IMG/VR virus record: IMGVR_UViG_3300037493_003260
Span: 20,089 to 84,088 of that record
Length of the DNA: 64,000 nt
Source of the DNA: a virus
Strand: one strand, 5' to 3'
Shown: piece by piece, positions 4,240-20,031 of the stretch
Numbering within the stretch: position 1 is the first letter of the stretch
Layout of the letters: each line of letters opens with the position of its first letter
Program-made: the position numbers and the translations under genes
Notes under the pieces: generated by a model
Databases searched by the model: none
The model's input: the letters and a program-made list of their open reading frames with translations, nothing else
Told to the model about the DNA's origin: nothing

Positions 4240-6426
4240 TTAGGCTGCGATATTGATAATCCTGCCTTGGAACGCTTCGCAGGTCATTTGAAGTACCGAG
4301 AATTCGGCAATCAAAGTCCTGTAAGCAGACTGAAGCAACGCAAGGTCGATAGCTGACAACGGCATGAGGTCAACCATCTGCACTGCGTTACCGTCTTCCA
4401 ACACTGTTTTGTCGTCGATGACGAGGGCAAAAGAATCACCATGAACGTCTTCCACAATATAGCGAGAGCCGATAATATCGACCAAGCCAAACGGGGAAAG
4501 CCATTTGGTAATACTGATACCAGCGGGAATATCCGCCATCGTACCAGCTCCTGCCTGGAACAGCTTGTAATAGCTGGACATCACCAGTTCGGAAATCTTC
4601 TGCAACTCACGATAACCAACAACAACAGCTTGAGGCTTCCCACCCTTGTTCACGATTTTCTTGCAAACTGCAGTTAAATCGGAAAGAGCTAAGGGCTGAT
4701 TAACGCCGCCAACTTTGCAGTCTTGAACGTTCGTCACAATCTGTTTGTTAAGACCATCGAACTGAAGCGGAGAGACCGAAGAATCGCCGTTGATAATGGC
4801 CCATTCTTCAATCAACGCTACGTTCAACATCTTGGTCTTAATTTGGTGCTTCTTAATATCCGTGTACGTCCCGCCAGCCATTTGTTCAAAGAACGAAACG
4901 GTAGCAAGGTCGCCCACACTGACATAAGGAGCCGATTTGTAAACGTAAGACGGCTGAGTAGCAGTCGGAAGCCCACCTTTGGCAAAAAAAGCATCCTCAG
5001 GGGCAGTTCCACCAAGGAACAGATGACCAGCAGACTGTGCGCCTGCGGAAATGGTCGGAATTAGCTGGTACCAAGCATGCACTAATGTTACGCAATCTTT
5101 CGATTGGGATTGCTATTTCTAGCAACCTCTCATAGTTACCTATGAGGTCGGACTATATCATCACTATACTAGTGTTCGGCGTGTAGTCTCTACGGATTCT
5201 ACTAGGTATTCTTAGTAGCCTTTCCTCGGTATTGTCCTTTGCAGGAGGTTCACCGATATAGCCAAATTTTACAAGGCCCATTGTGTTAAGCCTTGCCGTT
5301 CCCTTGAATCCGATTGAGTCGGTTTCGGAGCGGAGTGTCCGTTGGTGCCATAATCGCCCAAATAAGATTTCTCTTATGGGATTGTTACACTGTAAATTAG
5401 CCAGCGGTTAGGGCATTTCTGCCTAACTCTGCATGTCACCATGCAGTTCGGACTATATCTTCAATTTAAGATTCGTCATGCACTAGGTTTGCGAATGTTG
5501 TTAATTTGATTACTATATCCGCTAAGCCTTCTTAAATGTGTGGCGTTGAGTCTCTGAGGGAGTAAGTTGATACATTCATCTAAACGGTCTGATTTTCGTT
5601 TGATTGAAAATCGACACCCAGCTCTAATGAAAGAAGCTACGTTGAACCTGTAGTGGACAACTGGCTTAATACTACCTGCAAAGCCACCCTTACAGATTAA
5701 CGGTTTGGGCCAAACTGAAACTCCAAGGGAAGTTAAAAGCTTGTTGTATTGAGCAAGTAAATCTGTGTCTGTTGAACAATAGCCTATTTGATGTCTATAG
5801 GTATCAAAGTGCTTCTGTTTAGACTTGCTAATATAACCGTCTCCATCTATAAAGCCAGTGATTAACTTATGCTTTACAATTGGAAGTGCTTCCCAGGTTT
5901 CGTCTGGTAAAGATGACCCATTTTTCGTTGCCAGCAGTACCCATCGGCAGAGTTCGTCACACCGTACAAAAACGTTGTAAAGGAGCTTTCTAGTGCCCCG
6001 TTGCTGTTCAGAAATAGTAACCTTTCTGCCCAGTAATTTTTGTAAAGTAATTGCGACGGACTCAGCAAAGTCTTTATCGGTAACAGATAAACAAAATCTA
6101 TAACAGTTATCTTGTGTAAGATTAATGCATCCATCACTGAAATAAACACCTATGAGATATGCTGTGTTTGAGTCAAGTTTAAATTGTATCATTTTACCTT
6201 TCCTGCTGATTGTCTTCTATACTCTATTATACCATATTTTTACACTTTGGTAATGGTATATTTATCAGAAGATGTTCCAGCAAATAGCCACATTATGAGA
6301 CAGCGATTAACCTATCTCAGCTTGGAGGTCCTCACGAACCAACATCAAGCCGTCAACTGGAGTGGAACTAATAGCCTTCTGAATATCTTGAAGTGCTTGT
6401 TCTACGAGTTGAGCATTGTATGACAT
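4240..6426 (-). CDS. Major capsid protein (Twort/SPO1-like), three exons: 6314-6426, 5289-5358, 4240-5079; 340 aa spliced
   Basis: RBS aaggag upstream of ATG 6426. Joined frame MSYNAQ...VREDLQAEM-AIMAPTDTPLRNRLNRIQGNGKA-HAWYQL...; EEWAIINGD and FDGLNK motifs; follows protease/scaffold. Confidence 0.9.
5080..5288 (-). mobile_element. Group I intron 2 in capsid gene (209 nt, ORF-less)
   Basis: 5' exon CAAGGCU pairs with IGS GGCCUUG (terminal U.G); intron ends in G; core elements AGAGACUAC and GAUAUAGUC. Confidence 0.9.
5359..6313 (-). mobile_element. Group I intron 1 in capsid gene (955 nt) carrying a LAGLIDADG endonuclease
   Basis: P1 UGAGAU/GUCUCA; P10 UAAUCGCU/GGCGAUUA; terminal G; core elements UGCUGGAA, AAUCAGCAG, AGAGACUCAAC, AAGAUAUAGUC. 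Confidence 0.9.
5476..6192 (-). CDS. Intron-encoded double-motif LAGLIDADG homing endonuclease
   Basis: YLIGVYFSDG and LITGFIDGDG motifs; TGGTATAAT just upstream (6226-6234). Confidence 0.9.
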   Translation of the reverse strand: MIQFKLDSNTAYLIGVYFSDGCINLTQDNCYRFCLSVTDKDFAESVAITLQKLLGRKVTISEQQRGTRKLLYNVFVRCDELCRWVLLATKNGSSLPDETWEALPIVKHKLITGFIDGDGYISKSKQKHFDTYRHQIGYCSTDTDLLAQYNKLLTSLGVSVWPKPLICKGGFAGSIKPVVHYRFNVASFIRAGCRFSIKRKSDRLDECINLLPQRLNATHLRRLSGYSNQINNIRKPSA

Positions 6427-6464: not shown

Positions 6465-7355
6465 TTACAGTGCTTTACCGAATTTTGAGTCCATGCTCTT
6501 ATTCAGAACATCTTCACGAACCTTCTCCTGCTCGGCAGTTAAAGGTTTGCCTGACTGCACCCACTTTAGCACTTCTGCTCGTTGATTCTGGAATTGGGAA
6601 TCATCGTTGTCGGTACTGTCCGCATTCTTCTCGATTATGCGCTTTCTAGGCATCGGCTTTTTCAAAAGCTCTGTTACCGCGTCGAAACGTTTTCTCAACG
6701 TCTCCAATTCATTCGTGACCTTTGTTAAGGATTCTTTTTCTTCCTTAGCATCAGCCAATTTCTTTGCTTCTAATTCAGCAAGTTCTCTTTTCTTCTTTTC
6801 TTCTTCTGTTTCAACGACTTCTTCTTTAGATTCAGCTGCTTCTTTAGCAGGTGTTTCAACAGCTTCCTCTTTTGGGTCTTCCTTCTTGGCCTCAATTGCA
6901 GCAGCCAATTCAGCAGGAATAGCCTTGACAACCTCGGTTGCTTCATGTGTCTTAGCCTCTGGCATCACTTCTGCAACAGCCTTTGGTGCTTCAGGAGCAC
7001 TCGGAGCAACAGCAGCAGCCTCTACGGGATTACTTGTAGCAGGTAGCACTGTTCCTGTTGGTGCTTCAGGCTGAATGCTTCCAACGCTTACTACAGGAGA
7101 TGCAACTACAGCAGATGCCTCAACAGCGGACGGCTTAACTTCTGGCGCATCAGTAATATTACCTGTTGCAGCCCCTGCCATGGCTTTTTCGGTAGAGCTT
7201 TCACCCAGCGCGGGTGTTGCACTTGCGTTCTCTGGAGTTGCTTTAGCCCCTGGAACAGGCCTATAAGCACCTTCAAAAGCTTTTTCAAGAGCTTCGACCT
7301 TCTTCACCAAAGTCTCGATTACTGCACTAAATTTAATCATATCTTCCGTCGTCAT
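6465..7355 (-). CDS. Nested in-frame scaffold protein (internal start)
   Basis: gaggagg RBS at ~7366-7372 upstream of in-frame ATG 7355 (MTTEDMIK). Confidence 0.65.
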   Translation of the reverse strand: MTTEDMIKFSAVIETLVKKVEALEKAFEGAYRPVPGAKATPENASATPALGESSTEKAMAGAATGNITDAPEVKPSAVEASAVVASPVVSVGSIQPEAPTGTVLPATSNPVEAAAVAPSAPEAPKAVAEVMPEAKTHEATEVVKAIPAELAAAIEAKKEDPKEEAVETPAKEAAESKEEVVETEEEKKKRELAELEAKKLADAKEEKESLTKVTNELETLRKRFDAVTELLKKPMPRKRIIEKNADSTDNDDSQFQNQRAEVLKWVQSGKPLTAEQEKVREDVLNKSMDSKFGKAL

Positions 7356-8207
7356 TTCGTTTATTCCTCCTCGGTTTGAAACGTTATGAGTTTGATAAGC
7401 AGTGCCAAGTATAGCTTGCGCCTTCTTGTGAACAGCCTCAACTTCATCTGGAGTTAAGTTATATTTCTCCATTATTGCCAGTGCCGTTACGGCATGGACC
7501 TTATCGGACATAGGAAGCAGACGCTCTTTGATAAGCATGTCGTCTTTCTTGTACTTGCGAATGACCCCATAGCTGGAGTCTGCAAGCTGGTCAAGTTCTT
7601 CCCTGTCCAAAACTTTTCTGGTTAAAGAATCCACTTTATCACGGTGGCTATGAATCTCAGCCATTAGCGGGTCCTCAGCCTCTGTAATAACAAGCCTATT
7701 AGAGTCCTCGACGATTGCCGTTTGAAACGGTACTCCGTCAATGGACTTAACCAACTCAAAAGAGCATCCAGCGTTTGCTGGATTGTCTACAAGGGACAAC
7801 TCATTCAAGCGGTATTTTGTGATACGGGTAACAGTGCGAGAACCGCCTGTTGCCAAGTCCTTTACAATCTGGACATTCTTGTGAACAGTCTGCCCACCAA
7901 TAGAAAATCCAGTCAGTGTTCCATCCTTGACTTTCTGCCAGGTGTCTTCTGCGCCCTTGGAAATGTAAGCTTCGACCCACATCTTTTTGCTGTCATCATC
8001 AGGAATAATTTCCACAGCTTTGCCAACGGCTTTGGGTTCATGCATCTCTCGGATGTTTTTGCCCCAATTGGAAAAAGCTTCCTTACTGCCAGCATAGTCA
8101 ACTATCTCGCCCTGCTTGTCCACAGATTCCGTGGTCGCCCATCCCGCCACAGTGCGCTTTTCCTCGTTTATTTTTGAAATCGGACAGTACAAATTAAAAT
8201 CATTCAT
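6465..8207 (-). CDS. Prohead maturation protease (HK97/S78-type) fused to scaffold
   Basis: RBS gaggagg before ATG 8207; VAGWA, REMH, GFSIGG, ELSLVDNPAN motifs; Ala/Glu/Pro-rich C-terminal half. Confidence 0.9.
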   Translation of the reverse strand: MNDFNLYCPISKINEEKRTVAGWATTESVDKQGEIVDYAGSKEAFSNWGKNIREMHEPKAVGKAVEIIPDDDSKKMWVEAYISKGAEDTWQKVKDGTLTGFSIGGQTVHKNVQIVKDLATGGSRTVTRITKYRLNELSLVDNPANAGCSFELVKSIDGVPFQTAIVEDSNRLVITEAEDPLMAEIHSHRDKVDSLTRKVLDREELDQLADSSYGVIRKYKKDDMLIKERLLPMSDKVHAVTALAIMEKYNLTPDEVEAVHKKAQAILGTAYQTHNVSNRGGINEMTTEDMIKFSAVIETLVKKVEALEKAFEGAYRPVPGAKATPENASATPALGESSTEKAMAGAATGNITDAPEVKPSAVEASAVVASPVVSVGSIQPEAPTGTVLPATSNPVEAAAVAPSAPEAPKAVAEVMPEAKTHEATEVVKAIPAELAAAIEAKKEDPKEEAVETPAKEAAESKEEVVETEEEKKKRELAELEAKKLADAKEEKESLTKVTNELETLRKRFDAVTELLKKPMPRKRIIEKNADSTDNDDSQFQNQRAEVLKWVQSGKPLTAEQEKVREDVLNKSMDSKFGKAL

Positions 8208-8241
8208 GCTAAGTTTCCTCCTCGGAATCTTTGTTTTATTT

Positions 8242-8523
8242 TTATTTACATCTACTGCAAAGCCATTTGCCATTTTGGTAAGTGGCCTTTGAAACTTGTT
8301 GATTGCATTTGTTACAGATGAGTGCTTTTTTCTCACCGATACCTGAGAAACCTGTAAGCCTCTCACCGTTATTCTTCAAATTTTTAAAGGCGTTGAACTT
8401 ACGAGAATCGTCAATTTTACAAGTAAACGCATCCCCGCTTTCGTGTTCAACAACAAATTCGTGAGAACCTGTTCGGGTCATGCTCTTGACTGTATGCCCG
8501 TCGTCTACTTTCTTTTTAGTCAT
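8242..8523 (-). CDS. Hypothetical protein with C-terminal zinc ribbon
   Basis: CNKC...CSRC. Confidence 0.55.
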   Translation of the reverse strand: MTKKKVDDGHTVKSMTRTGSHEFVVEHESGDAFTCKIDDSRKFNAFKNLKNNGERLTGFSGIGEKKALICNKCNQQVSKATYQNGKWLCSRCK

Positions 8524-10174: not shown

Positions 10175-11752
<1,578 letters not shown>

Positions 11753-11769: not shown

Positions 11770-12000
11770 TTAGTTTACAACTTTTATGGAGGCGGTACCG
11801 TCTCCATTATCCTCGGCTGCAAGGGGAAGGTAGCCTGTGATTTGGCCGCCAGCATCCACAATCGCAATCATCGGGACATAAGTGCTTTTCATATTCTCGT
11901 CATAGGGAATCGCAGGGACTGGCTGTTGCACAGCTGCCATCTGGACATCCTGAGGACGAGTTGTTAATCGTTGAAAAATTTTCTTTAAAAAAGTAAACAT
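11770..12000 (-). CDS. Small protein paralogous to the N-terminal anchor of 10175..11752
   Basis: Shared PYD.N.KS...[15 protein letters not shown]. Confidence 0.7.
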   Translation of the reverse strand: MFTFLKKIFQRLTTRPQDVQMAAVQQPVPAIPYDENMKSTYVPMIAIVDAGGQITGYLPLAAEDNGDGTASIKVVN

Positions 12001-12278
12001 TAAGACTCCTTTTTGTGCTGAGAAAGCCATCGTTTAAGACTAGCCCTTATTTTTAATTTTGTTTCCTTAGTTAATGTTGCACCACCTGGGACTGCTTCTA
12101 AAACTAGCATTTCTGGGTATAGCTGCTGCTTTCTTAAAAGCCTTACCCAACGATGTTTGTAAGTATCAGTTACAACAGTATGGCAATGGGCATAAAGTCT
12201 CTGTTCTAAATTGGCAGTCTGTCCAACGTATCGTACTTCTTTTGTAACTGGATGGCGTAACACATAAATATAAATCAT
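12000..12278 (-). pseudogene. Degenerate GIY-YIG endonuclease (internal deletion)
   Basis: IYVL...RYVGQT...QRLY.H present, but the Glu helix and Asn motif that normally precede GG are missing. Confidence 0.6.
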
Positions 12279-14122
12279 TACTTTTCTTTAGAAGACTCGT
12301 TATCAAAAAATCCGATACGGAGCGTGGCGTTAATTCCTTGTTTTTTCAAGGTATCAATAGTTTTGTCCAGCTGCTCGTATTGTTTTTTGGTTTTCTGTGA
12401 CCGATTTACTTTTATGTTTAAATTACCTTCGTTTTGTTTTTGCTCATGGATAGTAGGCCGCCCTGCGTCGCCATTAACTTGTGGCTCAGGTTTCGGTCCA
12501 GGAGTATCACCTGGAATAGAGGCATCTTCCATGCCTGGTTCTGTGGGCATTCCTGGCATCGGAGGCATCCCTGGGGCAACGCCCATTCCAGGAATTGCTG
12601 CGGTCGGGTCAATCTTTTGTTCGTCAAGTTTATCCAAGTCACTCACGGGCAGCATTCCGACGGCACCCTTAATAGTGTACTCGTCGCCGCCTTCAATTGG
12701 CTTGAGGCCGAGTTTCGTTCGACGTTCATTAATAGAAATCACGCCCGTATCAATGTCGATTTTGTCAATCTGGGCACCCTGGATATTTTCTTTTGCGTCT
12801 TCAGTGTTCCAGGCAAATTTTACGTCGGTAAACTTAAATTCAGTCTTTACAATCTCTTCGTTAAAATACGACTGTAGCAAATTTAGTAGATTATTAACCC
12901 CGCGTGCTTTTGAGAGTTCAACCTGGGATTCCAGATTGGCTTTTCCGAAATCTAGAGTAAACCCAATATCCTGTGGACAAAGCCCATAGCAAGCACATTT
13001 AACAGAGGTGGTCCACTTAAGGTATTCCATCATCTGCATGTCCTGATTTGTTTGGACTCGCATTGGAATAAACTGCATCTTGTCAGAGCCTGACGCAAAC
13101 ACAATCTTGTGTGCTCCGCCACGACCAAGGACTTCGTTCTCCCACATCTTTTGGAAGATAGCCCGTTGGTCTTCAGTAACACTCTCTCCCAGATTTAAAA
13201 CGCCTGGGGGCACATTGGAATGCTTAAAATATTCGATGTTGTATTCATCAGCGTACAGACTGGCCGTAATAATATAAGCTGCAACTTCAAGTGGACTAAG
13301 ACCGTATCCTGTGTGCTGGGGATTCTGGGTAATATATAGAAGCTCGTCATTGGCGAACTCAGCTCTGAGAACACCTTTGTCTTCCCAGGCATAGGCTGCC
13401 TCTGGGGACGCAGGGGCGGTGCCATCTTCGTTTCGGTACAGTTTAACTTCTTGGCCAGGGACTGTGTAAAGCTCTGCAAGGTCTCCATGGTAATTATAGT
13501 TCTTTACCAAAGCCCCTGCATCAAAAATAAGGATGTCTTCCAATAGTAATTCAAGCAAAATCCTAAAGGAGGAGTCTGTGTCACTGGGATGCTCAAAGAT
13601 ATTCTTGACTTTGTATTTGTGTGACTCGGCAGTATCTCGCACTTTCCGAATCATAATTTTAAAAACCCAGCGAATGCGGTCACGTCTTTGGCTATCGTTG
13701 ATACCTGTATCATCCAAAATCACGTCTACCTTATGCTGAACTTCCTCTTTCAAATCCTTGCTTAGAATCTCGGATTCAAAATCAGGGGTATCAAATTCGT
13801 AGGGATTGATGTAGGCTAAAAGCAGATTTTCCCAACGGTCAAGTTCAGCCTCAACAGCGTCGGTATCGGGCACAATATCCCATGCCACGTTGCTGATGTA
13901 GCCTTTTAGAGTACGCCGAATCGCCCAGGCAATTGGGTCAGTATTCGCCAGTCTCTTGAGGGTTTCACTATTCAAAACAAAAGTCTTCTGTTGTTTCTTG
14001 TTTAGAATAGTATTGCTAAAAGCAAATAACCCTTTGCGAGGCATCGGGTTTTCACGCCCAGGGGCGGGCCTGAATGCTTTGTTTAAATTGTTTGTTAAAC
14101 TTTTGAAGAAGTCGTTAGCCAT
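12278..14122 (-). CDS. Portal protein (HK97-type)
   Basis: GYGLSPLE, YFKHSNVPPGVL, CACYGLCPQDIG, ISINERR..LGL.PIEGGD. Confidence 0.9.
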   Translation of the reverse strand: MANDFFKSLTNNLNKAFRPAPGRENPMPRKGLFAFSNTILNKKQQKTFVLNSETLKRLANTDPIAWAIRRTLKGYISNVAWDIVPDTDAVEAELDRWENLLLAYINPYEFDTPDFESEILSKDLKEEVQHKVDVILDDTGINDSQRRDRIRWVFKIMIRKVRDTAESHKYKVKNIFEHPSDTDSSFRILLELLLEDILIFDAGALVKNYNYHGDLAELYTVPGQEVKLYRNEDGTAPASPEAAYAWEDKGVLRAEFANDELLYITQNPQHTGYGLSPLEVAAYIITASLYADEYNIEYFKHSNVPPGVLNLGESVTEDQRAIFQKMWENEVLGRGGAHKIVFASGSDKMQFIPMRVQTNQDMQMMEYLKWTTSVKCACYGLCPQDIGFTLDFGKANLESQVELSKARGVNNLLNLLQSYFNEEIVKTEFKFTDVKFAWNTEDAKENIQGAQIDKIDIDTGVISINERRTKLGLKPIEGGDEYTIKGAVGMLPVSDLDKLDEQKIDPTAAIPGMGVAPGMPPMPGMPTEPGMEDASIPGDTPGPKPEPQVNGDAGRPTIHEQKQNEGNLNIKVNRSQKTKKQYEQLDKTIDTLKKQGINATLRIGFFDNESSKEK

Positions 14123-14786: not shown

Positions 14787-15080
14787 CTATTGGTTAGGTC
14801 CAGCTTGATAGTACGACCCAACATTTGGTGAATCGCTGCATGTTCCCATACCCACAGGGGGTGTAATTTTATTCGAGTTCACTGGCTGTTTTTGCTTTTG
14901 ACCATGAGCCATGTGCCGATTCTTGCTGCCAGCTAAATCTTCACGAACCAGCTCAAGGCCAACCACGGGTGTAGCTGAAGTTTCCTTCGACAGCACCGAA
15001 AGCTGACCGCAAAGGTCACGCAATTTTTCTAGAAGCCTCAGCCGAGCAATGCTATCCACAGTCTTAAAATACCTTTGCAA
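14787..15080 (-). CDS. Small protein carrying a copy of the capsid N-arm peptide
   Basis: KETSATPVVGLELVREDL versus capsid KAISSTPVDGLMLVREDL; true start may be GTG ~15059. Confidence 0.6.
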   Translation of the reverse strand: MQRYFKTVDSIARLRLLEKLRDLCGQLSVLSKETSATPVVGLELVREDLAGSKNRHMAHGQKQKQPVNSNKITPPVGMGTCSDSPNVGSYYQAGPNQ

Positions 15081-15390
15081 CTTTCAAAATTTGGATAACA
15101 GTCCAGGTCACAGCTGCAAGGGCTGTGGCAACTTTTACAACACTTGATAAAAACTCAGATACACCTGTAGATTTCATAAACTTTGTTTCAACGGGTTGCA
15201 AACGAGCTTCTATGTGTGCGTGTTGTTCTTTGTTGTTTTCATCGAAGGTTGTCAGGGCTACCTTAATATCCTCTAAAGCGTGAGGCAGATGATTAGTCAC
15301 CTGGGTCTTGATGGAAGCAACGTCAGATTTCAAGTCCGACACTTCGGCCTTTACTGCATTTACTTCATCGTGCATTTCCTTGTATCCCAT
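15064..15390 (-). CDS. Coiled-coil protein with C-terminal TM helix (holin/haemolysin-like)
   Basis: Heptad N-terminus and hydrophobic C-terminal segment. Confidence 0.5.
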   Translation of the reverse strand: MGYKEMHDEVNAVKAEVSDLKSDVASIKTQVTNHLPHALEDIKVALTTFDENNKEQHAHIEARLQPVETKFMKSTGVSEFLSSVVKVATALAAVTWTVIQILKVAKVF

Positions 15391-15735: not shown

Positions 15736-16082
15736 TTTTTGTTAATAGCTGTCCGTTTTACAAACGCCTTGAGCAGCCCTCTTTCGATGAGTTCGTCGTT
15801 GTAAGATGTGTCTTTTCCAGAAAGATAAAGGAACGCAAGATATGTTCCAGATTTCTCGGACTTTAAAGACTTGACGGTTACCTCTTTGTTAAGAAGTTTT
15901 TCGGTCAGTGTTTTCTTTATAAGCGTTGCCTTTTCAGGATTTTTATTTCCACGAAATTCCAAAAAGTCTATTCCTGCAAGCCGAAACTCTTGGTTTTTTA
16001 ATACTCCGAAACCCAGGTCAACAGTAAGGATAAGGCATTCCTCGCTGATAATTTCTGTTACAAGTGCCAGATATTTATGCAT
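15732..16082 (-). CDS. Thermonuclease (SNase)-like protein, degenerate active site
   Basis: VDLGFG....FRLAGID..E, .YLA.LY, NDELIERG. Confidence 0.65.
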   Translation of the reverse strand: MHKYLALVTEIISEECLILTVDLGFGVLKNQEFRLAGIDFLEFRGNKNPEKATLIKKTLTEKLLNKEVTVKSLKSEKSGTYLAFLYLSGKDTSYNDELIERGLLKAFVKRTAINKK

Positions 16083-18543
16083 GTAAATCTTCCTTTATTG
16101 CATCTATTGCGGCTTTCGCATCAACCAATCCCACGCCGCATTCATCAGCGGTAAAGGCTAGCGGTTTTGCGGTTGTCTTAAGAAGGTGCTTCACTGCAGC
16201 ACACCGTTCTTTATAATCTTTGGTCCAACTTGGAGCCGCCTCAAGAATTAGTGCACAAATTCCTGCAACCACTGGGGTTGCCATAGAAGTTCCACTCATG
16301 CGTTGGTAGGGCACAGCATCTGATTGAACAGAACAATTATTCATGGGGGTATCGGCACTTTTTACCGATGTAACCCCATTTTCGTAATAGCAACCACCAT
16401 AAGAAGCTTTAGTGCCACCGCCTGGGGCTACAAGGTCAGGCTTGGTTAAATTCACACCGTTGAAAATCACAGGGCCACGGGAACTGTAGCGTGTAATCTT
16501 GTTGTCCCTGTCTACTGCACCGACAGTAATTACTTTTGCAGCACAACTAGGGGACCCAATTGTATTTGCTCCAGGGCCTTCATTTCCTGCGGCCACAACT
16601 ACAACAATGCCTTCAGAAGCCAGTGCATCTGCTTCCCGTGAGATGGCATCATCAGGAGTTCCTTCGCCACCAAGACTCATGGAGATAATATCGGCTCCTT
16701 GGTCGGCAGCCCACGACATTCCCTTAATCACGGTATCGTTTGACCCGTGCCCGCTGTCGTTTAAAACCCGTGCATCTATAAGAACAACTTTTGGGGCAAC
16801 GCCACGATAAAGTTTTCCACCGCCAGCGATTACGCCAGCACAATGCGTGTTATGAGCAATAAAGCCATTTGCTGTATAGTTATGGTTTTTAGTGACTGTA
16901 AAATCATAGAGAGTGGTGTTCGTATCTTGTATTGAAATATTACAAATCTTGTCAGCAACTCGACGATGGCAGTTTGGATTCTTTAGCTTTTTAAAGTGTA
17001 AAAATTTGCCGAGTTCCGTGTTACAAGAGAGGCCTACAGCGTAGCACATATTTTTATTTCCGAAGGTACTCTTATTAGAGCTGTGTTTACAAATCCAAGA
17101 ACGAATACCTAAGGCCTTAAGTAGGGAACAAAGTCCATCGGCAAATTGTTTGCTTCCAGTAATAATTCTAGCTTTGCTATTAATACAGCCATCTCCATCA
17201 ATGGCCCCAGCCAAAAAAGAAAAAATAACACTTCGAGGAGACTTAGAAATAACGTAAGGTAACGTGACAGTTAGTGATTTGTTTCCAATAGGAATTCCAA
17301 GCTTATTAAATAAAAATACCAATTCTTTGTTATAGACGGAAACCCTATACGTATTGCGTTGCCTAAGGTCTTTCTTTACTTTCGGGGCATAATCAAATAA
17401 CTCCTTAAAACCGTCGCAAAAATTTTGAACCAATTCAAGTGAATTACTAGTAAATTCGATTCTGGCGTTGCATCCAGCCTTCTCTTTTTTTAAATAGGAC
17501 AAGTGACCGTCAGTTAATACTAGACCTACTAGGTACGCTAACTTTTCATTAACAGGCAAATTACTACCTCTAAATGGCACATAATGGTAATCATTTATAT
17601 CTAACGAAGAATCTGTAAGTTTGATGCACTCACCGACTTGGAGTTCATCAGCCCGTTTTTCTTTAATTGTCAATTCATGGCCCCTTGTTGAGGTAACCAC
17701 AAAAACCTTGTGCCACGGCGTTAGGGCTAAACTACCACCTCTTGTGGTAATAGTGTACAACTTTCCAGTGTAAGGAATTTTATGTACAAATTCCATTTGG
17801 TCTGGCTCACATATTCCCTGAAGATTACAAGAAATGGTTTTAATGTTAAATCGTTTAATGTCTTTAACAGTAGAGCCATCCGTTAACTGGTAGGATTCTC
17901 CTGGAGATTTTTCGTATACAGTTTCGATTGTTTGCAATCCGCACAACGATGTGTACACTTTGGTATTGGCAGTTATACAGCCATGACCAACGCCATCCAG
18001 TTTTGCAATCTTGGGTGTTTTGGGGCGATTCCAAAACCATTTGCCAAAATAATCAGGCTGTGAAAAATCATACCGAGCAACTACTTTTCCTGCCAGGTCG
18101 GGGTGTCTGTCATTGATTCCTGTATCGACGACAGCGACTTTAATTCCCTTTCCTTCGTACCCTGTTGTGGCTCTCAGTACAGAAACTTCTGTCTGAACTG
18201 CTGCCCTATCCATATAAGCTCTGACTTGTTTCACAGGTTCAATGTCTACGTGGAGTTTCTCCTTGAGCCATTCCATTTGCTCAGAGGTTAACGCTGATTG
18301 AAATTCAACAACCATGGCGTTAATACGCCGATGGAGTTGAATTAGTTTTCCGCCAAATTTTGCAATATCCTGAAGTTTTACGCCTGCCCGATTAAGAACT
18401 AGAAGAGCCGTAAGAAATGCGACTCCTGCAAGAAGGGGGTGCTTTGTAAAAACAGATTTAATGATTTTGCCAGCTTTAAGATATAAGAAATATCTCGGCA
18501 AAACATTTTCTTGACGTTGTAAATTTGTGATTTCTAAACTCAT
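16075..18543 (-). CDS. Subtilisin-like S8 serine protease with N-terminal hydrophobic segment and intein
   Basis: VAVVDTG, HG|TH, AAGNEG, KPDLVAPG, SGTSMATP. Confidence 0.92.
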   Translation of the reverse strand: MSLEITNLQRQENVLPRYFLYLKAGKIIKSVFTKHPLLAGVAFLTALLVLNRAGVKLQDIAKFGGKLIQLHRRINAMVVEFQSALTSEQMEWLKEKLHVDIEPVKQVRAYMDRAAVQTEVSVLRATTGYEGKGIKVAVVDTGINDRHPDLAGKVVARYDFSQPDYFGKWFWNRPKTPKIAKLDGVGHGCITANTKVYTSLCGLQTIETVYEKSPGESYQLTDGSTVKDIKRFNIKTISCNLQGICEPDQMEFVHKIPYTGKLYTITTRGGSLALTPWHKVFVVTSTRGHELTIKEKRADELQVGECIKLTDSSLDINDYHYVPFRGSNLPVNEKLAYLVGLVLTDGHLSYLKKEKAGCNARIEFTSNSLELVQNFCDGFKELFDYAPKVKKDLRQRNTYRVSVYNKELVFLFNKLGIPIGNKSLTVTLPYVISKSPRSVIFSFLAGAIDGDGCINSKARIITGSKQFADGLCSLLKALGIRSWICKHSSNKSTFGNKNMCYAVGLSCNTELGKFLHFKKLKNPNCHRRVADKICNISIQDTNTTLYDFTVTKNHNYTANGFIAHNTHCAGVIAGGGKLYRGVAPKVVLIDARVLNDSGHGSNDTVIKGMSWAADQGADIISMSLGGEGTPDDAISREADALASEGIVVVVAAGNEGPGANTIGSPSCAAKVITVGAVDRDNKITRYSSRGPVIFNGVNLTKPDLVAPGGGTKASYGGCYYENGVTSVKSADTPMNNCSVQSDAVPYQRMSGTSMATPVVAGICALILEAAPSWTKDYKERCAAVKHLLKTTAKPLAFTADECGVGLVDAKAAIDAIKEDLHA
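16849..17979 (-). mobile_element. Intein (377 aa) with LAGLIDADG endonuclease in the subtilase
   Basis: Starts CITANT; LTPWH block B; LVGLVLTDG and FLAGAIDGDG; ends IAHN followed by Thr. Confidence 0.92.
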
Positions 18544-18801: not shown

Positions 18802-20031
18802 TTATTTCTTTTCTTCAGGTTCTTTTTTGATATCGTCTTTTGTTGCCTCACATTTATTAGCACCCTGCCTAGCAACGGCAGCTTGCCCAATCGGAGAAGC
18901 AACGGCTACGGCATCGTCAAAAGCATCTTTCTTTACTGGTTCTTTTACAGAAAGTTCTTGCCATGCAGATTTTGCCATGGCGACAATTTCTTCTTCGCTC
19001 AAATCTGTAATTTCTTTGAGCGTGTCAACTACGCCACGTATAAATTCTTCAGGAGCTTCCGCAGGAAGCGGCTCACCAGCATGGGCTGCGCTCACTTCAG
19101 TGGCAGCTGCTTCAGGAGCCTTAACTTCTGCAGGAATAACAGGAGCGTCAGCGGATTTATTGGTTACAATATTACCAGCTTCCGCAGGTCCAGAACTAGG
19201 GACCTTGGGAATTTTCGGTTTCTTTGGCTTGGGAAGCAGGTCCGATAGTTGCGTGCCAAGCATATTAGCAGCAACATCAGAAACAAACGCCCCGATACCT
19301 TTTTCCGTTTTCTCGTCTTTTTGAAAACTTTTTACAGCTTTCAAAAGTTCGACATTGGACTGGTTCACATGTTCAAATCTGCCGTCAGACCACTTAACCA
19401 TCAAACCAACCTGGCCTGATTTCGTCTGATACACTTTGAGTACATGCCCAACAACTTTGCTGCCATTTGACAAAGTTTTTACAACGATGTCCTGGGTCTT
19501 GATGGAGTCATCGTAATTGGCGTGTTCGGTCATGCGACCCACGCGGTCCTCTTCGTAGTTCTCCTGCGTATGCTTTTTCTCGTCAGCGTCGGCCCATTCC
19601 TCTTTGGTTTTGTCACCGTAGGGCTTGCCTTCGGTCTTTTCTGAAGGAACGGCTTCTTCTTTTTTGTCCGTAATAGCAGCGTCCTTAACAGGAGGAACAA
19701 CAGCAGCATTGTCTGTTGCACCTTCTTTGCGTTCAGAAACATCCGCTTTGGAATCATACCCGCCTTCTTTTCCACGATTCTGTGCAGGGACCCCCTCGGT
19801 TGCTTTGTCCGTTGACGGAGCTTTTGGAAGCTCTGGACTCGCAGCTGATTTTCGGATGGCATCACCTGTAGTACTTGTTACTGTTTTGCTAACACATTTT
19901 TTAGCATCTAACAATTTGTTAAGCGATTCGTTAACTAACTTCTCTTCCTCGTTAGTTAAGGGAATGCAATTCCTGCGCTTTTCGATGATTGCTTCGAGGC
20001 TTTTGCTAGTTTCTGATTTTTCCATTGTCAC
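18802..20031 (-). CDS. Low-complexity acidic protein, putative internal head protein
   Basis: Ala/Glu/Lys/Pro-rich with many K-S/K-A sites; small beta domain (VVGHV...MVKWSDG). Confidence 0.6.
   Translation of the reverse strand: MTMEKSETSKSLEAIIEKRRNCIPLTNEEEKLVNESLNKLLDAKKCVSKTVTSTTGDAIRKSAASPELPKAPSTDKATEGVPAQNRGKEGGYDSKADVSERKEGATDNAAVVPPVKDAAITDKKEEAVPSEKTEGKPYGDKTKEEWADADEKKHTQENYEEDRVGRMTEHANYDDSIKTQDIVVKTLSNGSKVVGHVLKVYQTKSGQVGLMVKWSDGRFEHVNQSNVELLKAVKSFQKDEKTEKGIGAFVSDVAANMLGTQLSDLLPKPKKPKIPKVPSSGPAEAGNIVTNKSADAPVIPAEVKAPEAAATEVSAAHAGEPLPAEAPEEFIRGVVDTLKEITDLSEEEIVAMAKSAWQELSVKEPVKKDAFDDAVAVASPIGQAAVARQGANKCEATKDDIKKEPEEKK

Follow-up and report, generated by a model that had tools for sequence, protein, structure and literature searches.

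The stretch of DNA analyzed here (the window, 64,000 nucleotides) is part of an 84-kb virus record and encodes a protein of 90 amino acids that carries a near-copy of the N-terminal arm of the major capsid protein. The copied unit consists of a helix, an invariant lysine and the sequence G-L-x-L-V/T-R-E/Q-D-L. Judging by the alignments, this unit is common to the family of the small protein and to the capsid family, of which it is a hallmark. In related phages, the unit occurs on further proteins, and this portability, as read from their sequences, is the main new fact. We tentatively propose, at a chance that we put slightly below even, that the 90-aa protein bears a portable label for capsid targeting and processing, which stems from the capsid N-terminus.

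The small protein and its resemblance to the capsid arm

The gene of the small protein occupies positions 14787..15059 (-), as defined by the open reading frame, the starts of its homologues and a comparison of codon sites. All genes of this region lie on the minus strand. The GTG start codon (15059-15057) is located 4 bases past the stop of the upstream gene (15064-15390), and the stop codon is at 14787-14789. The sequence-only reading had placed an ORF at 14787-15080. The gene is real, but it does not begin with the TTG at 15080. Among 14 database homologues (72-93 aa, 67-99% identity), 13 start at the position of the GTG at 15059, 12 of them with Met and one with Val, the remaining one is N-terminally truncated, and none starts upstream, so that the small protein comprises 90 residues counted from GTG 15059.

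Residues 1-24 (14988..15059 (-)) form a leader with a conserved L..LRDL.G pattern, which is found in the alignment as well as by hhalign and is probably an amphipathic helix. The copy of the capsid arm follows at K25-L42 (14934..14987 (-)) and is made up of the lysine, eight residues and then G-L-x-L-V-R-E-D-L. The C-terminal tail (14790..14906 (-)), with the pattern H/Y-G-Q-K-x-x-Q-P ... I-T-x-P-x-G ... S-D-S-P, is conserved in the alignment and probably disordered. The small family has 26 members with overall identities of 35-88%, the lowest identity to the window's protein being 35%. K25, G34, R39, D41 and L42 of the arm copy are invariant in all 26, as are L13 of the leader and G53, Q54 and P68 of the tail region. 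E40 is replaced by Q in several members.

Of the 18 residues of K25-L42 in the small protein, 13 are identical in K17-L34 of the capsid protein, which confirms the near-copy that had been pointed out at about 14934-14987. The corresponding DNA segments agree at 32 of 54 bases. Four of the 13 identical residues share a codon and nine are encoded by different codons, and it was from such synonymous differences that selection on the peptide had been suspected. Comparison of the gene with its four closest homologues (L003, L006, L008 and L009) bears this out, with pS values of 0.76-0.84 and pN values of 0.15-0.18. The small protein is under strong purifying selection, and its synonymous sites are saturated.

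The likelihood of a chance match was assessed by comparing the 39-residue peptide encoded by capsid exon 1 with all 1463 segments of 30 aa or longer from a six-frame translation of the 84-kb genome. The best match of this peptide, apart from itself, was the small ORF with a score of 60, and the runner-up scored 39. With 200 shuffled queries, the maximum scores had a mean of 37.9 (sd 3.3) and a top value of 52, and none of the 200 reached 60. Profile comparison by hhalign of 26 small-family with 57 capsid sequences gave a probability of 96.6% and an E-value of 4.7e-10 over 31 columns. These columns extend from the helix before the lysine to the end of R-E-D-L, and the leader pairs with capsid residues 5-16. 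In every related locus, the capsid N-termini were the next-best matches of the small-family HMM. By these alignments, the units of the small protein and of the capsid protein are homologous, and both are under selection.

The similarity does not extend to the capsid body or to the scaffold. The 90-aa protein gave no family match to SU10_MCP (PF17236), the N-terminal unit (31 columns) being all that it has in common with the capsid protein. The small-family HMM gave no significant match to the protease-scaffold protein described below; the copied part is the capsid N-terminus. In a hand count over eight genomes, the label matched its cognate capsid best, alone or in a tie, in five, a figure to be read against a capsid motif that hardly varies. 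A complex prediction for two P0052 capsid proteins and the small protein gave a score of 0.00, which, with no controls and an uncertain partner fold, counts neither way.

The family profile was also run against 1.84 billion cluster representatives and returned 17 proteins at E <= 0.001. One of them, P0029 (a tandem-repeat protein of 517 aa matching in eight stretches), was set aside as likely spurious. No Pfam (E <= 0.01), PHROG or ESM Atlas family was found for the 90-aa protein, and a search with the family HMM detected no paralogue in its own genome. A phage collection searched with the region (for near relatives) and with the ORF (at the protein level) yielded no relative, and neither did a scan of viral contigs for L-T-R-E-D-L variants. 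A scan of genome contigs returned a single contig of 3.3 kb, which is without a capsid gene.

The capsid gene and the neighbouring head genes

The sequence-only reading had assembled the capsid gene from two exons. This has to be revised: two Rfam group I intron matches, together with intronless orthologues, point to three exons and two group I introns. Exon 1 (6314..6426 (-), 37 codons and 2 nt, with a junction taken from the intronless orthologues) contains the N-arm motif K17-L34 at 6325-6378 (-). It is followed by intron 1 (5359..6313 (-)), which matches RF00028 with 44.6 bits (E 9.4e-9), under the family gathering score of 50, and harbours a LAGLIDADG homing endonuclease ORF at 5476-6192 (PF14528, E 6.9e-14). 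The boundaries of this intron are those suggested by comparison with intronless orthologues. Exon 2 (5289..5358 (-)) lies in the frame 5286-5384 and encodes A-I-M-A-P-T-D-T-P ... G-N-G-K-A, a peptide that is also present in intronless capsids. Intron 2 (5080..5288 (-)) matches RF00028 with 65.9 bits (E 3.7e-15) at 5129-5330, and its probable boundaries were derived from P0052. Exon 3 (4240..5079 (-)) encodes the HK97-fold body and belongs to the SU10_MCP family (PF17236, E 1.9e-13). The intronless orthologues are those of L005 and P0052, the latter being 95% identical to exon 3 and identical to exon 1 at its N-terminus.

Introns at these junctions seem to be recurrent in the capsid family. Among 120 listed capsid homologues, at least nine gene calls start at the exon-3 junction (H-A-W-Y-Q-L) or shortly before it, and at least four at the exon-2 peptide (M-A-P-T-D-T-P). 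In two of the homologues, P0126 and P0130, the capsid sequence is joined to an HNH domain.

Across 57 capsids, K17 and L29-V-R-E-D-L34 do not vary. L-V-R-E-D-L is present in all 92 of the homologues among the 120 listed that have their N-terminus, and the remaining 28 are gene calls whose start lies past this motif or, in a single instance, inside it. The spacing from the lysine to the glycine varies in distant capsids, so that the cut site is not pinned.

A capsid model calculated from 57 sequences has an HK97-type fold with a pLDDT of 75 (a smaller alignment of 11 sequences gave only 31.7), and its top Foldseek matches are the capsids of SPO1, SU10 and HK97. Residues 14-42, which hold the motif, have a pLDDT below 50, and the docking site of the arm is therefore not visible in the model. 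A helical leader had been postulated in front of both copies of the motif. The hhalign match covers the preceding helix, and the model contains a helix at capsid residues 4-15; its pLDDT is only 44-55, though, and the small protein is without a confident model.

The gene for the prohead protease (6465..8366 (-); PF04586, E 1.4e-4; phrog_9427, head maturation protease, E 2.7e-39) is fused to a long scaffold-like tail. The C-terminal part of this tail is only 21-33% identical between clades. The protease-scaffold proteins of the window, L014, L005 and L024 have a K-A-I/L-P/G site in their variable linker. The portal protein is encoded at 12278..14122 (-) (PF04860, E 1.1e-28) by the third gene downstream of the small gene, in agreement with the distance of three genes given earlier. 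Directly upstream of the small gene, at 15064-15390 (-), a 108-aa coiled-coil protein with a C-terminal hydrophobic (TM) segment is encoded. The position of this gene is kept in L001 and L025, and the protein has only weak matches to coiled-coil families.

Several other features of the neighbourhood deserve mention. Residues 24-44 of a 409-aa protein (18802-20031) share 11 of 21 residues with the end of the protease-scaffold protein (residues 608-628; pairwise E 0.007); the matching segments are at 19900-19962 (-) and 6483-6545 (-). The segment of the 409-aa protein may be a copy of the scaffold tail and may represent a complementary kind of label in the same phage. An 822-aa subtilisin-like protein (16075-18543 (-)) is interrupted by a long insert, which looks like an intein with endonuclease when the translation is read. 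Directly after the portal gene, there is a 92-aa ORF (12000-12278 (-)). By eye, its start resembles the motif of a GIY-YIG endonuclease, and the ORF may add another mobile endonuclease to the head module. Long collagen-like G-x-x repeats occur in three proteins (1-612, 1830-2945 and 10175-11752 (-)), which are presumably fibres. In L005 (12854-15873 and 9110-10174), a SAM-lyase domain forms the end of a MuF-like head protein, and a short motif H-P-R-D/G-x-x-G-K/R-F occurs at apparent domain boundaries in three proteins, among them the long homologue of the small protein.

A portable unit and its possible roles

The small-family profile was run on 15 other records that encode the capsid family. 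A non-capsid copy of the unit was found in nine of them. In the other six (G001, G002, G004, G007, G015 and G009), there was none at E <= 1, G009 having a weak tail-like match only. Seven records are rated at least 90% complete, and of these four have a non-capsid copy and three do not. The bearers are a 93-aa protein in G003, a 354-aa protein in G005 (described below), a 158-aa frame in G006, where the unit is terminal and at the end, a 76-aa frame in G008, a 404-aa frame in G010 (unit at residue 287, E 2.3e-4), a 695-aa frame with the unit near its end in G011, and an 830-aa frame in G012, G013 and G014, which form one lineage (unit at residue 517 of the 822 residues held in the locus). The unit can thus be N-terminal, internal or C-terminal in proteins of 76-830 aa. 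The bearers of G006, G008, G010, G011 and G012-G014 are encoded some 9-12 kb upstream of the capsid gene. Within the window's genome, only the capsid protein and the small protein bear the unit.

In L005, a relative of 105 kb, the 354-aa homologue consists of leader and motif, about 250 inserted residues and the conserved C-terminal tail. P0025-P0028 are long forms resembling it, with the insert between label and tail (long forms, 339-354 aa). In P0030, the unit is located behind a ParB_N domain, and in P0031 between ChaB on one side and ParB_N and a SAM lyase on the other, which is the architecture of a polyvalent protein. Lys and Arg are extremely abundant in the large bearers, for which Pfam gave no domain with a meaningful score. 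Outside the capsid protein, the copies of G006, G008, G010, G011 and G012-G014 have a basic stretch that begins within a few residues after R-E/Q-D-L. Most members of the small family have a Gly and a basic linker after the motif, where the capsid protein continues with Q-A-E-M-A-I. Across the relatives, one label is found on several unrelated proteins, as is the case for the T4-type CTS proteins.

In G002, which lacks the small family, a Cys-rich protein of 214 aa is encoded ahead of the portal gene, on its upstream side (L035 2250-2894). It ends in a motif-like stretch (N-L-A-R-E-D-L, then a basic run). The family profile does not detect this protein, and it was not counted as a bearer.

For a homologous, near-invariant and movable unit that is found on cargo-like proteins, the best explanation is a role as an address and processing label. 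In the course of prohead assembly, this label would engage the usual receiver of the capsid N-terminal unit. Candidates for the receiver are the protease domain of the protease-scaffold fusion and the inner face of the capsid body. A conserved partner is most likely in view of the near-invariance of the label, and for the same reason we give lower weight to the poorly conserved C-terminal tail of the scaffold. The bearer of the label would thereby be built into the prohead. Once there, it would be cut by the prohead protease at or near the lysine, as presumed for the capsid protein. Cutting the window's protein in this way would leave a 65-residue peptide that begins with the N-arm-like strand and ends with the conserved tail.

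HK97-type maturation involves a cut at a lysine, and by analogy cleavage would be expected at the invariant lysine of both families. The sequence-only reading had already marked this residue as the maturation site; its invariance agrees with that assignment, and cleavage there is the part that we infer. The K-A-I/L-P/G linker sites may hint weakly at a cut of the Lys-Ala type. A cut at the lysine would keep the label on the product, so that anchoring fits as well as targeting.

Partner binding and packaging would be expected for the label bearers. They look like virion cargo, given the polyvalent architecture of one of them, the richness of the large ones in Lys and Arg and the location of the small gene among head genes. 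Polyvalent proteins of phages are predicted to be packaged and injected (PMC5512222). The window's own 90-aa protein has no domain in Pfam or PHROGs and therefore does not itself class as a polyvalent protein. It also speaks against the label that the 'cargo' in the window is only a 65-residue peptide.

The sequence-only reading had offered three jobs for the copy, namely completing the portal vertex, regulating assembly, and acting as a decoy for capsid-sensing immunity. Its foundation has held, in that the copy is real and acts at the protein level, both copies are under purifying selection and the motif is conserved in homologous loci; none of the three jobs has evidence of its own.

As a structural mimic of the N-arm, the small protein could be a minor head protein whose strand docks into the capsid lattice, for example at empty sites around the portal or as cement, while its tail contacts the portal or DNA. 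We regard this as unlikely, though it accounts for several observations. The copied part is the stretch that would stay on the mature capsid after a cut at the lysine, the portal gene follows as the third gene downstream of the small gene, and a motif that hardly varies fits a conserved partner, for which the capsid body is an example. One would, however, expect a dedicated vertex part to be universal and of fixed form, and three of the seven near-complete relatives are without a non-capsid copy, while elsewhere the unit is carried at any position by proteins of widely varying size. Moreover, each capsid subunit has its own arm, which leaves few free docking sites. No PHROG structural family, as might be expected for decoration or cement proteins, matched the small protein. 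Given the portability of the unit and its absence from three of seven relatives, a cargo label fits better than a stoichiometric part of the portal vertex.

It is less probable still that the small protein is an assembly regulator that is not packaged and competes for the protease-scaffold protein or a chaperone, thereby timing or limiting assembly or the action of the protease. It is small, probably disordered and translationally coupled within a late block of head genes, and it has the presumed protease-recognition junction in common with the capsid. A regulatory or chaperone role has also been raised by the authors of a study on 80alpha for the N-terminal peptide common to its capsid and scaffold (PMC5744158). 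Such a role would leave unexplained why the unit is found on large basic proteins and on a polyvalent anti-defence protein, and why the C-terminal tail is separately conserved.

Capsid-sensing defences exist, and a copy of the arm might soak up a host sensor of the capsid N-terminus. The mimicry itself fits such a decoy, and nothing further does; we consider the idea very improbable. A decoy need not keep leader helix, lysine and tail, and would not account for internal or C-terminal copies on large basic proteins. In addition, the gene is late and located among head genes, and Pfam and PHROGs returned no match to a defence or anti-defence family.

A chance resemblance or a decaying, functionless partial duplicate is effectively refuted: although the match is short (18-31 residues) and all-against-all genome searches yield many short matches, the shuffled queries and the hhalign E-value argue against chance, the motif is invariant even in the most distant members of the family, the protein is kept while synonymous sites are saturated, and the ORF is intact in 14 of 14 homologues, so that neither the loss of the motif nor the disrupted frame by which the sequence-only reading proposed to recognize decay was seen.

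Comparison with known systems

Bearers of the T4 CTS are typically small, basic internal proteins. How tailed phages select the contents of their heads is known in detail for few systems, and the T4 CTS is one of them; it is described as bringing internal proteins, and GFP as well, into the prohead core ahead of the action of gp21 (PMC9958956). The unit described here would be analogous to the CTS of IPII and IPIII in being short and in directing unrelated proteins to the prohead core before the protease becomes active. It differs in several respects. The CTS has about 10 residues and is N-terminal, whereas the unit here has about 30-40, is a homologue of the N-terminus of the capsid protein itself and also occurs at internal or C-terminal positions. 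The protease belongs to another family, being S78-like and fused to the scaffold, and the label of the present phages is known from sequence.

In the case of 80alpha, the capsid protein, the scaffolding protein and ribosomal protein L27 have a common N-terminal motif, and one protease trims all of them (PMC5744158). Non-homologous proteins thus carry the N-terminal sequence of the capsid in this system as well. There, in contrast, the Prp protease is provided by the host, and the motif of 13-14 residues is removed, while in the phages studied here the conserved part is mostly downstream of the presumed cut.

CpmB of SaPI1 copies the C-terminal helix-and-hook of the 80alpha scaffold, which binds the helix of the capsid N-arm (PMC5644958). 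It resembles the small protein in mimicking one side of the capsid-scaffold contact in order to enter or steer procapsid assembly. CpmB copies the scaffold side and is encoded by a satellite, whereas the small protein copies the capsid side and is encoded by the phage itself. Ccm of SaPIbov5, which is related to the capsid protein and participates in assembly (PMC8569155), is a second capsid-related protein in this process. It is described as homologous to the whole capsid protein, unlike the small protein, which has the N-terminal unit only and no HK97 body.

The fold neighbours of the window's capsid include 'EncA bound to EncB targeting peptide'. Cargo-loading peptides of encapsulins are likewise short and attach their cargo to the inside of a shell with the HK97 fold. 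They differ in that they do not resemble the N-arm of the shell protein itself, and no protease step is involved.

Within the portions of the cited reports that were accessible, neither the T4 CTS nor the 80alpha motif nor CpmB is a case of the capsid's own N-terminal junction copied onto other proteins. A limited search, with most subscription journals and supplements outside its scope, found no description of a capsid-arm copy on other phage proteins.

The closest parallel comes from T4 itself. Residues 2-38 of gp61.1, a hypothetical protein of 54 aa, align with gp23 residues 57-93 with 17 identities among 37 residues (E 2e-9), and this segment of gp23 spans what we take to be the known gp21 cut. 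The gene of gp61.1 (NC_000866 18966-19130; gp23 from 104945) has homologues in 1487 phage records. Like the small protein of the window, gp61.1 copies the capsid protein across the maturation junction and into the mature N-terminus. It is unrelated in sequence, the capsid family and the protease are different, and its gene adjoins the primase gene rather than head genes. An unrelated and tractable phage thus seems to have this device as well; a limited literature search, relying in part on excerpts, found gp61.1 mentioned in genome papers only and no description of the device.

A broader proposition, which we consider possible and on balance doubtful, is that copies of the coat N-terminal junction form a general and repeatedly evolved addressing system of tailed phages. 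If this were true, cargo and small head peptides would enter proheads, and be trimmed there, by imitating the coat N-terminus, and the S78-type protease-scaffold family of the window and the T4 superfamily (gp61.1/gp23) would be independent examples. Virion cargo would then be predictable from sequence alone, and foreign proteins could be loaded into HK97-fold shells. The prediction would extend to packaged and injected proteins of uncultured phages, including anti-defence cargo such as the SAM lyase fusions, and widespread 'hypothetical' peptides such as T4 gp61.1 would acquire a function. Because T4 is tractable, this idea is open to a direct test in that phage.
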